From the IMG/VR virus record IMGVR_UViG_3300029581_000014: 59,677 bases of DNA; one strand, given 5' to 3'. Shown here piece by piece: positions 17,389 through 33,942 of the stretch (its first letter is position 1; each line of letters begins with the position of its first letter). The notes beneath the pieces are model-generated. The model searched no databases. It saw only the letters and a program-made list of their open reading frames with translations, and was not told the DNA's origin. A program made the position numbers and the translations under genes. The DNA comes from a virus.

Positions 17389-17567
17389 TGCAGATGGAAC
17401 CCATTGATTACACCGCCCTGTACGAGCAGAATGAGGACTTTAAGCGGTACGTTGACAGATATTGCATCAAGCACAGAATCAGCGTTGAAGAAGCCTTACA
17501 GCACTATCTAGTGCAGATGGCAGGGAGACAGTACAAGGAGCAGGCAGAAAATATTAAAAAAATATAA
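17385..17567 (+). CDS. Hypothetical protein (60 aa)
   Basis: Track ORF with SD aaaggagtg. Confidence 0.5.
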   Translation: MMQMEPIDYTALYEQNEDFKRYVDRYCIKHRISVEEALQHYLVQMAGRQYKEQAENIKKI

Positions 17568-17675
17568 AATATATGATTTTCTGCTCTAAATTTTCTTTTT
17601 TTGTTTTTTTTCTAACATATTAATTATGAAGATAGTAGCTACCTGTCTTGATTTATATGAAAGGAGAAAAGGCCA

Positions 17676-17762
17676 TGAAAAAGAAAATATTAGACATTAT
17701 TGGTTTTGTTGGAAGTGTTTCAAGTATCTTATCCCTGATTATTTATTTCGTCAACAGATAAT
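17676..17762 (+). CDS. Small hydrophobic peptide (28 aa)
   Basis: SD aaaggagaaaagg. Translation MKKKILDIIGFVGSVSSILSLIIYFVNR. Isolated in a 256-nt gap. Confidence 0.4.
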
Positions 17763-17823
17763 ATGAAGAAAGGAGTGAGAGGTTTGCTGGCCAGCGTGAA
17801 AGAGCTCTTTACTCCGATTAAAA

Positions 17824-18789
17824 ATGAGTGATTTAGATAAGTTTAATTACGAATGTCAGAATCAGATGAGCATTTTTGACATAATACGTGAACCGATACG
17901 GATTACAAAGCCTATAAGGCTGATAGAACTGTTTGCCGGATATGGTTCGCAGGCAATGGCACTGAAACGTATCGGTGCGAAATTTGAGCATTACAGAGTT
18001 GTTGAGTTTGATAGGTATGCCATAGCAAGCTATAACGCAGTGCATGGCACCGATTTTCCAACAATGGATATAACACAGGTTCATGCTGCGGATTTAGCCA
18101 TTACGGACACTGAAGCCTTTACTTACTTACTTACTTACTCGTTTCCTTGCACCGATTTGTCGGTTGCTGGAAAGCGAATGGGAATGAGCAAAGGTAGTGG
18201 AACAAGAAGCGGTTTACTGTGGGAAGTGGAACGGATTCTGACAGAAATACATGAAAGTGGTGGTGAATTACCGCAGATTCTGTTCATGGAAAATGTTCCG
18301 CAAGTCCACGCAGAATCGAATATGTCTGATTTTCAGAAATGGATTGATTTTCTTGTGAGCCTTGGATATGTGAACTACTGGCAGGATTTGAATGCTAAAA
18401 ATTATGAAGTAGCGCAAAATCGTGAAAGATGTTTCATGTTTTCATTTTTTGGAGAGTACAATTACCATTTCCCAGAACCGGTTCCATTAAAAAAGAAACT
18501 GAAAGATTACTTAGAGGAAAATGTGGAAGAAAAGTATTACATCAACAATGAAAAGGCACAAAAACTTATTCAGACACTTATTGACAACGGAACATTGCAA
18601 AAACACAATTCTGAGAGCAGAGCAGAGCAGAGCAGAGCAGAGCAGAGCAGAGCAGAGCAGACTTGCATTGACGGAACAATCTGCAATCCACAGCAAAGAG
18701 ACATTGCAAACTGCATCACAACAAGATATGACTGTGGAATCTCAAACCAACAGCAATTCGGAAATATGGTTGCAGAAAATTTGTATTGA
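17824..18789 (+). CDS. DNA (cytosine-5) methyltransferase, N-terminal part (motifs I-VIII plus the start of the variable region)
   Basis: 'ELFAGYGSQ' (I), 'FPCTDLSVAGK' (IV), 'MENVPQV' (VI), 'QNRERCFMF' (VIII). The ORF ends inside the variable region after the repeat tract. Confidence 0.85.
   Translation: MSDLDKFNYECQNQMSIFDIIREPIRITKPIRLIELFAGYGSQAMALKRIGAKFEHYRVVEFDRYAIASYNAVHGTDFPTMDITQVHAADLAITDTEAFTYLLTYSFPCTDLSVAGKRMGMSKGSGTRSGLLWEVERILTEIHESGGELPQILFMENVPQVHAESNMSDFQKWIDFLVSLGYVNYWQDLNAKNYEVAQNRERCFMFSFFGEYNYHFPEPVPLKKKLKDYLEENVEEKYYINNEKAQKLIQTLIDNGTLQKHNSESRAEQSRAEQSRAEQTCIDGTICNPQQRDIANCITTRYDCGISNQQQFGNMVAENLY
18614..18661. repeat. Pentanucleotide tandem repeat (AGAGC)x9 plus aga, inside the methyltransferase variable region
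   Basis: Counted directly. It encodes SRAEQ x3 in the current frame. Confidence 0.95.
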
Positions 18790-18899
18790 TACAAGCATGA
18801 GTGGATTAGAGGATGGTGCAATAAGAACATACAGAGACACAGCACCGTCTATAACCGCAAGGGAATATAAAGAGCCAAGAATGATATTGGAGTGATTGA

Positions 18900-19475
18900 A
18901 TGGAAGTAATAGGCAGCATATACACCGGAGTAACAGCAAATTTTCAGCGAGGTGTGTATCCGATCGCAAGGTGTGTAAAAGCAGAACAGCATGATTTAGG
19001 AGTAGTTATGGCAGATGTAAATGTTTTAGGCTCTCTTGAAGCAAAATTTGAGAGTACCAACAGAATTTACGATGTGGGGGGGGGCAGTCCAACATTGAGT
19101 ACTATGCAAGGTGGAAACAGGGAGCCTAAGGTTATTGTTGCCATGCGTGGCAGAAACCCGGATAATCCGTCTGATAGGACAACAGGAAGCCCAACAGAAC
19201 AGAGGTTAGAACCGAACATGAGTGGAACGAGTAATTGTCTTACAAGCGTGCAAAAGGATAATCTCGTACTTGAACCAAAATACAGGATTAGGAAGTTGAC
19301 TCCGAGAGAATGTGGTAGGCTCATGGGAGTATCAGACGATGATATATCCAAAATGGCAGTAGTGAACAGCAACACACAGCTTTACAAACAATTCGGAAAT
19401 AGCATTGTGGTAGATGTCATGTGCGCAATGTTCAAAAACTTAAATATTGAGCAAGGAACTGAAATCAAGAACTAA
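18900..19475 (+). CDS. DNA (cytosine-5) methyltransferase, C-terminal part (variable region plus motifs IX-X)
   Basis: Own SD ggag 7 nt upstream. 'RKLTPRECGRLMGVSDDD' (IX) and 'YKQFGNSIVVDV' (X). In a different frame from the N-terminal ORF. Confidence 0.8.
   Translation: MEVIGSIYTGVTANFQRGVYPIARCVKAEQHDLGVVMADVNVLGSLEAKFESTNRIYDVGGGSPTLSTMQGGNREPKVIVAMRGRNPDNPSDRTTGSPTEQRLEPNMSGTSNCLTSVQKDNLVLEPKYRIRKLTPRECGRLMGVSDDDISKMAVVNSNTQLYKQFGNSIVVDVMCAMFKNLNIEQGTEIKN
19076..19084. repeat. G9 homopolymer inside the methyltransferase C-terminal ORF
   Basis: gatgt-ggggggggg-cag, encoding VGGGS. Confidence 0.9.
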
Positions 19476-19485
19476 AAAGTGAAAT

Positions 19486-19557
19486 AGTAACTCAAAAGTT
19501 GAGTTAAGAAGTGAAAAATTTAATTAAAACTTTGAGTTACTATTTGAGTTCCACTCA
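19486..19557 (+). promoter_or_regulatory. Cluster of mutually exclusive AACTCAA/TTGAGTT pairings downstream of the methyltransferase
   Basis: AGTAACTCAAA (19486) is complementary to TTTGAGTTACT (19531). Extra TTGAGTT copies lie at 19499 and 19544, and ACTCAA at 19552. Confidence 0.4.
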
Positions 19558-19606
19558 ATAAATCAAAAGCAAGTTAAAATCCACCGGTAATACGAGGGAA
19601 AAATCG

Positions 19607-19668
19607 AACTAGTAAATTTTCTTTACTAGTTGGGCAAATGAACTACCGAGGAAAATTCGGTAGTTGGG
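19607..19668 (+). promoter_or_regulatory. Two tandem hairpins with conserved flanks AACTA...TAGTTGGG and covarying stems, just upstream of the 19685 gene SD
   Basis: AACTAGTAAA-ttttc-TTTACTAGTTGGG and AACTACCGA-ggaaaat-TCGGTAGTTGGG. Confidence 0.5.
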
Positions 19669-19684
19669 AAAATTAGGAGAATAC

Positions 19685-19918
19685 ATGAAAGTAAAAAATG
19701 AAGAAGTCAGATATTATCAGCCAAGATTTAAAAGGTGGATTGACTCTACTAAATGGGATTCAATTGTAGAAAGATTACCAGATGAACATATATCCATAAT
19801 AACACAAGTAATGAATGCTGAAAAAGATGGAGATTGCAGTTGGCTTATCTGGAAATGCTGCGATTATGTACTCGATAATATAAGGGCAATAGCAAAGAAA
19901 ATAGATAGGCTAACTTAG
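19685..19918 (+). CDS. Hypothetical protein (77 aa)
   Basis: Internal ATG with SD taggagaa. Confidence 0.55.
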   Translation: MKVKNEEVRYYQPRFKRWIDSTKWDSIVERLPDEHISIITQVMNAEKDGDCSWLIWKCCDYVLDNIRAIAKKIDRLT

Positions 19919-33588: not shown

Positions 33589-33780
33589 ATGGAGCGAAAA
33601 ACTACAGATGCAACAAGAAAAGCGATTTACAAATACGACAACAAATTTGAACGGGTGAATTGCCGTTTTGCAACTGGCACAAAAGACCGCATCAATAAAT
33701 TAGGTTATAAGAGTGTAAATGATTTTATAAAATTAGCTGTTGCGGAAAAACTGGAGCATGACGAAAAAATATTAAAATAA
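33589..33780 (+). CDS. Small RHH-like DNA-binding protein (63 aa)
   Basis: Internal ATG with SD aaggaggtg. 'RVNCRFATGTKDRINKLGYKSVNDFIKLAVAEKL'. Confidence 0.55.
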   Translation: MERKTTDATRKAIYKYDNKFERVNCRFATGTKDRINKLGYKSVNDFIKLAVAEKLEHDEKILK

Positions 33781-33794
33781 GGCACAAAAACATA

Positions 33795-33823
33795 TTGACA
33801 TATAAGGCACAAAATGCTATAGT
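33795..33823 (+). promoter_or_regulatory. Promoter TTGACA-17-TATAGT with an iteron in the spacer
   Basis: -35 at 33795-33800 and -10 at 33818-33823. Confidence 0.6.
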
Positions 33824-33923
33824 GATATCACGATATCAAACAAGTGATATCACACTAATGATGTCATGATATCACACAAATGATATCACAAAAAAACTAA
33901 TGATATCACATAAATGATATCAC
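33823..33923. repeat. Array of six perfect TGATATCAC sites plus two degenerate ones in the leader of the 33943 gene
   Basis: Starts at 33823, 33845, 33867, 33881, 33901 and 33915 (spacings 22, 22, 14, 20, 14). Degenerate copies at 33831 and 33859. Confidence 0.9.
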
Positions 33924-33942
33924 AAGAAAAGGAGGTGCTAAA

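Follow-up and report, generated by a model that had tools for sequence, protein, structure and literature searches.

The window analysed here is the 59,677-nt stretch of viral DNA recorded in IMG/VR as IMGVR_UViG_3300029581_000014. Two adjacent genes on its plus strand, between positions 17824 and 19475, probably encode an orphan C5-cytosine DNA methyltransferase (MTase) with multiple target-recognition domains (TRDs), which would be made as two polypeptides, alpha and beta, and controlled by hypermutable simple-sequence tracts. The carrier would be a phage or prophage, roughly 57–60 kb in size, of human-gut Lachnospiraceae; this explanation as a whole carries fairly good confidence. The principal tract, nine units of AGAGC in the linker after motif VIII of alpha, varies in length between near-identical phages, its length decides which frame is read downstream, and the overlapping frames behind it are conserved and under selection.

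The open reading frame (ORF) of alpha (17824..18789, plus strand, frame 1; 321 amino acids (aa) at nine units) matched PF00145 with E = 3e-44 over profile positions 2–227. The beta ORF (18900..19475, plus strand, frame 0; 191 aa) matched the same profile with E = 8.6e-11 over positions 269–322, and the profile stretch matched by neither ORF is the variable (TRD) region. Alpha carries motif I (LFAGYGSQ, S-adenosylmethionine binding; 17929..17952, inside the PF00145 match) and, located as motif strings, motif IV (SFPC, with the catalytic cysteine; 18136..18162), motif VI (MENVPQ; 18280..18303) and motif VIII (QNRERCF; 18412..18441), followed by the repeat-encoded linker and TRD1. The order of motifs I, IV (PC), VI (ENV) and VIII (QxRxR) is that required for a C5-cytosine DNA methyltransferase. 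Beta consists of the modules T3, T4 and T5, followed by motif IX (YRIRKLTPRECGRLMG, 19281..19328; beta carries RKLTPRECGRLMG) and motif X (QFGNSIVVDV, with the string QFGNSIVV; 19389..19418). Both were found by PF00145 match and motif string, and they stand after the variable region as the family requires. A preliminary description, made from the sequence alone, had proposed a C5 enzyme divided into alpha (motifs I–VIII) and beta (motifs IX and X) inside the variable region, as in M.AquI. The profile matches, the motif strings and the gap between profile positions 227 and 269 bear this out.

The best solved relatives were M.MpeI and M.HhaI, with the relative P0001 rather than the window protein as query. 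Identical copies of the 321-aa alpha protein are present on 4 public contigs, and the 191-aa beta protein occurs unchanged on 18 human-gut metagenome contigs. The neighbourhood of the locus is phage-like (YopX, GIY-YIG, tyrosine recombinase), and prophage copies were found in metagenome-assembled genomes of Lachnospiraceae, among them a 141-kb contig from Roseburia and one of 1.67 Mb from Eubacterium.

Frame states and length variation of the AGAGC tract

Tandem Repeats Finder (TRF) reported AGAGC with 9.6 copies, 100% matches and a score of 96 at 18614–18661, and exact counting gave nine perfect units at 18614..18658 (plus strand), as first noted. This contingency tract is the sole run of at least three AGAGC units in the 59.7-kb window, both strands having been checked. 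In all three frames (AGAGC)n encodes the same cyclic peptide, RAEQS, with zero stops; therefore, tract length only selects the frame that is read downstream.

The consequences of tract length were followed by simulating alleles. With 6, 9 and 12 units, alpha proteins of 316, 321 and 326 aa were obtained, which end in NMVAENLY and read TRD1 in frame 1 (TCIDGT...IANCITTRYDCGISNQQQFGNMVAENLY, 18661..18786, plus strand). With 7 and 10 units, alpha proteins of 353 and 358 aa were read in frame 2 to RMILE (…APSITAREYKEPRMILE), and the stop codon of this frame (18893–18895) lies 4 nt ahead of the beta ATG. With 8 and 11 units, alpha ended after 280 and 285 aa in SRADLH, at the TGA at 18669–18671. Thus, the predicted frame table was reproduced: 3k units lead to TRD1, 3k+1 units to frame 2 and 3k+2 units to an early stop. 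At 3k+1 units, the ribosome would be carried to TRD2 by L2 (LALTEQSAIH...EIWLQK, 18662..18778, plus strand), a frame-2 linker overprinted on TRD1. TRD2, or T2 (ICIDTSMSGLEDGAIRTYRDTAPSITAREYKEPRMILE followed by TGA; frame 2, 18779..18895, plus strand), is the C-terminus of natural alpha proteins. As in simple sequence repeat (SSR) contingency loci, the tracts of the gene pair, (AGAGC)9, (TTAC)5 and G9, are perfect intragenic repeats with a unit length not divisible by three. As in SSR-driven specificity switches, tract length alters the TRD content of the product, both in the simulation and in natural alleles with T1, T2 or neither.

Among near-identical phages, the number of units was variable rather than fixed at nine. 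One locus identical to the window at 100% over 6.6 kb likewise had 9 units (L003), a locus at 99.55% identity had 12 (L004), and a locus with 0 mismatches in 3.86 kb had at least 10 (L005). The exact window alpha protein was found with 6 units on 1 contig (P0121), with 7 units on 4 contigs (P0135) and with 9 units on 4 contigs (P0003). On a 56-kb contig with 7 units (L100), one mismatch and the repeat gap were the only differences from the window over 7,072 nt. This contig encodes the 353-aa alpha protein ending in RMILE (frame 2, TRD2), and the same 191-aa beta starts 4 nt on. Between two loci from two samples (L104 and L105), the only difference over 2,964 nt was 5 versus 6 AGAGC units, and L001/L010 (98.7% identical) carried 11 units and a truncated alpha. 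Since near-identical flanks go with differing unit counts, change in the repeat outpaces the accumulation of point substitutions. All three frame states are present in nature within one lineage.

Differences in repeat number might stem from assembly or sequencing, and some short-k assemblies do end inside the repeat (L005, L006, L007). Such an artefact is, however, extremely improbable: the 45-nt tract is shorter than one read, the 9-unit allele recurs on several independent contigs, the 7-unit allele was found on 4 contigs from different sources, and unit counts agree across IMG/VR, ENA and JGI records.

Conservation and selection in relatives

A scan of IMG/VR yielded 364 related viral loci, the best 80 of which were analysed; the query used for ranking contains TRD1, and TRD modules were placed on all analysed loci by tblastn with module peptides. 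At the repeat site, after IDNGTL, these loci carried (AGAGC)3–15, (GACA)5–15, (AGAAC)8 or a degenerate remnant. Each unit type gives one cyclic, hydrophilic, stop-free peptide in all three frames, RAEQS, DRQT or RTEQN. Almost all loci showed the same layout: the core and TRD1, both in frame 0, flank the repeat in this order; next come an alternative TRD in frame +1 and the beta junction, followed by T3, T4 (with a poly-G tract), T5, variable cassettes (T6–T13) and motifs IX and X. The alternative TRD was T2 in 16 loci, T9 in 48 and T6-like in 3, and the +1 reading is fixed in lineages without a repeat (L060/61, L072–74, P0081). The split and the frame offset are retained in relatives at 74–98% aa identity, so that close relatives do not carry one uninterrupted ORF; a single uninterrupted chain was seen only in more distant relatives (about 50–60% identity). 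Within the top 120 protein clusters, alpha ended after TRD1 in about 14 clusters (28 contigs) and read L2 into T2 in 15 clusters (199 members, 43 contigs).

Megablast of 17600–19700 against 50,697 phage records gave no match, and tblastn against annotated phages found distant relatives only, the best being Dulem virus 39 at 62%; the many matches to Bacillus phages were below 60% identity and at the whole-protein level. A metagenome scan with the repeat flank added two further contigs only.

The window holds five modules (T1–T5) between motifs VIII and IX, and shuffling among relatives involves at least 13 module types. T3 (…IARCVKAEQHDLGVVM, 18900..19010), T4 (…RIYDVGGGSPTLSTMQGGNREPKVIV, 19011..19139; contiguous in single-chain P0001) and T5 (AMRGRNPDNPSDR…NCLTSVQKDNLVLE, 19140..19274) follow one another on the plus strand within beta. 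By sequence comparison the modules are real TRDs, because every one of them also occurs in frame in uninterrupted single-chain relatives or natural fusions and because they have in common a signature, [PNST]-[TCN]-[LIV]-[TSKR]-[AT]…V-x-E (PTLTA..V.E), that aligns with the TRD segment of M.MpeI. In particular, the last module of P0001 aligns with the 'PTLTASGANSRIKIE' segment ahead of motif IX in solved M.MpeI. TRD1 is in frame in P0001, P0005 and P0007, and T9 in single-chain P0008, P0012, P0018 and P0020. In L041, L067 and L068, T2 lies in frame within the beta ORF, and in P0022 and P0023 it forms an in-frame fusion behind TRD1. T5 is nearly invariant across all relatives, the single-chain alignment included, with a changing set of other modules around it, and may serve as a fixed scaffold or default TRD instead of a swappable cassette. 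The suggestion that beta opens with a third TRD-like motif held for its TRD-like start; the count was too low, with three modules (T3–T5) in place of one.

In order to compare constraint between frames, ratios of nonsynonymous to synonymous polymorphism (pN/pS) were used, with the caveat that kinship among loci inflates simple statistics. T2 is under purifying selection: in genomes where it is currently out of frame, pN/pS was 0.12 in its own frame, and the same nucleotides gave 1.4–1.7 in the other two frames. Together with its occurrence in frame in other proteins, this agrees with the earlier proposal that the frame-2 segment is a second TRD. T9 behaved similarly, with 0.43 in its own frame versus about 1.0–1.2 in the others. 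For TRD1, pN/pS was 0.38 with reduced pS, and for L2 it was 0.73; these values fit a picture in which TRD1 would carry the main constraint and L2 would mostly be constrained to stay open. T3 and T5 each gave 0.15, and all pieces of the gene pair fell between 0.06 and 0.38.

The frames themselves were conserved as well. In 67 of 67 loci, no stop interrupted the +1 frame between the start of TRD1 and the end of the alternative TRD, L2 included, and the +2 frame was closed within 0–2 codons in 76 of 76. In the window's own genes, 0.3% of +1-frame open runs reached 94 codons. Synonymous codons of TRD1 were then resampled with the gene's own codon usage in ten clusters below 75% nt identity. The probability of an open +1 frame was 0.005–0.095 per cluster, and the frame was open in reality in all ten; given some dependence among the clusters, the joint figure of 1e-15 should be read as an upper bound on significance.

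In an alternative reading, the switching is plain ON/OFF. The repeat would toggle alpha between a full-length form with TRD1 and a truncated form, and TRD2 would be an inherited, non-contributing relic. Such a reading accords with the distribution of states among the analysed viral loci with at least five units, in which the TRD1 frame is commonest (42 of 53, against 4 alternative and 7 truncated), and hpyAVIBM is a documented case of a C5 MTase switched ON and OFF by an SSR (PMC3411764). It is nonetheless unlikely given the selection on T2 and T9, the +1 frame that is stop-free through TRD1 in every locus at the low per-cluster chance given above, the lineages locked in the +1 reading, and the fact that alpha–L2–T2 proteins are as common in public data as alpha–T1 proteins.

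It is a good deal less likely still that TRD2 is made without DNA slippage, either as a separate small protein (ORF 18521–18895) or by ribosomal or transcriptional frameshifting on the repeat, both forms then arising from one allele. This would likewise account for the open +1 frame and for selection on T2, and the frame-2 ORF of the window does start with an ATG at 18521 and spans 124 codons. In relatives, however, the +1 frame stays open over a median of only 9 codons (range 6–32) upstream of the repeat, no ATG or Shine–Dalgarno (SD) sequence is conserved there (L012 and L014 have none), and natural alleles place T2 in frame with the core. To our knowledge, AGAGC is not among the known slippery motifs, which counts against frameshifting on the repeat. 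Independent translation of TRD2 from the ATG at 18521 was rejected, as neither the upstream +1 frame nor the start is conserved. A −1 ribosomal frameshift at A_AAT_TTG (18774–18780) was rejected too, as it leads to the closed frame 0, not to frame 2. Selection between TRD1 and TRD2 by tract length remained the preferred reading.

Beta has its own start. At the junction GGAGTGATTGAATG (18889..18902, plus strand), the SD sequence GGAG (18889–18892) stands 7 nt 5' of the ATG at 18900, and the corresponding junction in relatives, GGAGTGATTGAATGGAAG, also holds the SD and the ATG of beta. An SD for ORF 18900–19475 had been noted before, and this GGAG-N7-ATG start is conserved in relatives, with variable spacing. 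In L002, the ATG stands 4 nt farther from the frame-2 stop, which alters the frame relation. Because SD and ATG are kept there at a different distance from the upstream stop, beta is initiated on its own, and its N-terminus, MEV[IL]GS, is conserved. As judged from these comparisons, the split is real and not a recent frameshift, beta being a separate gene with its own start.

Further tracts, leader and flanking elements

The gene pair has at least three variable tracts, the AGAGC switch among them. Two others, (TTAC)5 and G9, were absent from the preliminary description, and all three are in frame in the window. The (TTAC)5 tract (18119..18138, plus strand; TRF 5.2 copies, 100%) encodes FTYLLTY directly 5' of the catalytic SFPC (motif IV). 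Close relatives with 4, 6 or 7 TTAC units have truncated products of 108–125 aa (P0122 on 11 contigs; P0126, P0130, P0150), the DNA of L104–L106 has 6 units, and in other relatives the repeat is broken by synonymous changes (2–4 units). From this pattern, (TTAC)n is probably the master ON/OFF tract for alpha.

The G9 tract (19076..19084, plus strand) lies inside T4, between RIYDV and SPTL, and is in frame in the window, where G9C is an in-frame variant of G7TGC. It is probably an ON/OFF tract for beta. The homologous poly-G in relatives ranges from G5 to G10, with the two halves of T4 (T4a and T4b) in frame in 18 of 58 loci and out of frame in 40. In the G8 state, ATGATG directly 5' of the tract opens an ORF, 'MMWGGCSPTL…', which could serve as a restart of beta. 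Relatives of the T9 type have an extra poly-G inside T3 (G4–G9; attatcG(n)tatttccc), which breaks the beta ORF in 12 of 18 loci (L019, L022–L025, L032, L039, L047, L048, L084, L086, L087); the window is without such a tract.

Several observations weigh against the proposed switch between alternative recognition modules. First, the 18:40 ratio of in-frame to out-of-frame T4 poly-G equals the neutral 1:2, so that this tract looks unselected, and many members of the family may be OFF or decaying at beta. A neutral ratio is also as expected of rapidly switching contingency tracts, and it is compatible with partial decay in some lineages. Second, the 42:7:4 excess of TRD1 over truncated and alternative states could partly reflect the TRD1-containing ranking query. 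Third, the length variation observed is variation between assemblies. Fourth, an AlphaFold2 model of single-chain P0007 from a 22-sequence alignment was confident for the catalytic domain and had a predicted local distance difference test score below 50 throughout the variable region (residues 253–380). Finally, the step from different modules to different methylation specificities of TRD1 and TRD2 is one that we infer.

Some of these points would suit a decaying pseudogene, i.e., a once single-chain multispecific methyltransferase that random frameshifts at mutation-prone tracts are breaking up. Some relatives are uninterrupted (P0001, P0007; 80 of the top 120 clusters), the poly-G states of relatives fit the neutral expectation, and several relatives are broken in up to three places. 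Decay is very improbable all the same, since purifying selection acts on every piece, frame offsets as well as beta's SD and ATG are conserved down to about 75% aa identity, and perfect repeats of three unit sequences, in up to 15 copies, are maintained at one site. The three in-frame tracts of the window also speak for an intact gene pair rather than for decay.

The leader of the alpha gene (17770–17823) contains a hairpin-like element that includes an SD-like AAGGAG and the palindrome GCTGGCCAGC at 17786–17795. Its centre is a G/C-only 4-bp palindrome that differs between relatives (L009–L088), being GGCC, GCGC (20 loci), CGCG (9) or CCGG (2) within otherwise identical flanks. These four centres are all the possible G/C-only palindromes, and all four are classic 5-methylcytosine (5mC) target sites. 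The leader palindrome may be a methylation-sensing operator. Palindrome type was rejected as a predictor of TRD content, as L067 and L068 have the same modules with CCGG versus GCGC. RNA folding of the leader gave a weak z = −1.3, a promoter and terminator scan gave no more sites than shuffles, and an Rfam scan of 17400–19800 gave no credible match.

A 15-codon mini-ORF (TTG…MLASVKELFTPIKNE, TGA; 17784–17831) follows a strong AAGGAG. The overlap of its stop with the start codon of alpha (ATGA) suggests that alpha is translationally coupled to a leader peptide. Directly 3' of the beta stop lies a 31-nt inverted repeat with 81% complementarity, and two more hairpin-forming repeats precede the next ORF, these elements lying at 19477–19550 and 19607–19665; none of the repeats after beta has a T-run terminator tail. 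Farther away, tandem repeats with periods of 14, 22, 25 and 34 built around GATATCACA motifs occupy 33764–33930 as a cluster, possibly the phage's origin or an iteron-like region.

One or two N6/N4 (PF01555-type) methyltransferase genes are found in some relatives directly 5' of the C5 gene (L002, 1379–2227, minus strand; L102, 1–1279). At the position of these genes, the window has unrelated small ORFs; therefore, the methylase module is itself mosaic.

Proposed mechanism, known systems and significance

In the proposed mechanism, slipped-strand mispairing during replication would alter the tract lengths. With 3k AGAGC units, the alpha core with TRD1 would be made; with 3k+1 units, the core with the overprinted linker L2 and TRD2, ending 4 nt ahead of the beta ATG; and with 3k+2 units, the alpha core only. 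Beta would be translated from its own start in all states, and (TTAC)n and G(n) would switch alpha and beta, respectively, ON or OFF. Alpha and beta would assemble, each TRD adding a target, by analogy with multispecific phage enzymes, M.AquI and M.SssI fragments. Since beta with its own TRD modules would be made in every state, the states would differ in one of several specificities and not in all methylation. A three-state switch of the kind A/B/none had been proposed. Its three frame states stood, but methylation would probably not be absent from the 'none' state at 3k+2, since beta has TRD modules of its own. Phage progeny would differ in 5mC pattern, which would hedge between being protected from Type II restriction by the host and being exposed to methylation-dependent restriction; the switching rate and selective benefit assumed here are inferred.

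More tentatively, and with rather less confidence than in the gene pair itself, this MTase family of temperate gut phages may be regarded as a combinatorial epigenetic switch. Several independent tracts (4-nt, 5-nt and one or two poly-G) would stand at the boundaries of TRD cassettes, one pair of TRDs would lie in overlapping frames, one prophage would give rise to progeny with many 5mC repertoires, and the leader palindrome would possibly act as a methylation-sensing operator.

Bacillus phages (SPR, phi3T, rho11s, H2) have multispecific C5 methyltransferases, which were reportedly treated by Trautner et al. in 1996 (cited in PMC12707154). Enzymes of the SPR/phi3T type are phage orphan C5 MTases with an enlarged variable region of tandem exchangeable TRD cassettes. 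The likeness to them that was proposed at the outset applies to the window enzyme as a phage-encoded orphan C5 MTase with several tandem TRD cassettes; it fails in that those enzymes are single polypeptides with a fixed TRD set, whereas the window enzyme is split into two ORFs. We know of no description of SSRs or frame switching for the multispecific MTases of Bacillus phages.

The split has precedents, as C5 MTases tolerate splits in the proximal variable region, both in natural M.AquI and in M.SssI fragments (PMC3404938). As in the window, M.AquI's larger subunit has motifs I–VIII and the proximal variable region, the smaller has the distal variable region and motifs IX and X, and the genes are adjacent. 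The likeness is one of domain layout; M.AquI has one specificity and no repeats. M.HpyAVIB of H. pylori (hpyAVIBM; PMC3411764) is also a C5 MTase with an intragenic repeat whose length changes frameshift the gene, but it has AG dinucleotide repeats, ON/OFF switching only, a chromosomal location, a single TRD and no split.

SSR-driven specificity switching is known from Type I hsdS, i.e., NgoAV of N. gonorrhoeae and the three-TRD HsdS of Mannheimia and Fusobacterium (PMC7383803). There, too, an SSR lies beside TRD-coding segments, and tract length sets TRD content, with a change in specificity and not mere OFF. However, hsdS encodes a bacterial N6-adenine Type I subunit that is full-length versus truncated or extended in one frame. 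The window has a phage C5-cytosine MTase with two TRDs in different, partly overlapping frames, TRD1 being overprinted by the linker to TRD2. As a PF00145 C5 MTase, the window protein is not a Type I HsdS; it would work like the NgoAV type without belonging to it.

Contingency loci of phages were first claimed in a 2025 preprint, for homopolymer A-tracts in T2 agt (bioRxiv 10.1101/2025.10.21.683753, PMC12633550). As proposed here, a hypermutable tract in a phage DNA-modification gene there gives progeny with and without the modification, hedging between opposite defences. The T2/T4 cases differ in that homopolymers cause loss and regain of function, whereas the window has 4- and 5-nt repeats, alternative recognition modules and several tracts per enzyme. 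Thus, SSR phase variation of methyltransferases and SSR specificity switching in Type I hsdS are already known, and a phage C5 enzyme choosing between overprinted TRDs appears to be new. Full-text searches yielded no account of a phage C5 enzyme whose overprinted TRDs are selected by a repeat, although a subscription journal may hold an earlier one.

If the proposed reading is true, the locus would be the first case of overprinted alternative TRDs selected by repeat slippage in any methyltransferase and the first multi-nucleotide contingency locus shown in a phage. The idea of phage contingency loci would be extended from homopolymer ON/OFF switches to multi-nucleotide repeats with alternative functions. 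The locus would also offer a natural example of dual coding maintained by selection, in which a TRD is overprinted by a linker, and a compact model for the use of detached or exchangeable TRDs by multispecific C5 enzymes; the family's swappable TRD cassettes, at least 13 in number, could be searched for new specificities. Phage methyltransferases are a main route of escape from restriction, and methylation also exposes phages to methylation-dependent (Type IV) nucleases. Heritable and rapidly reversible methylation repertoires would explain the broad, shifting host range of temperate phages in defence-rich gut communities.

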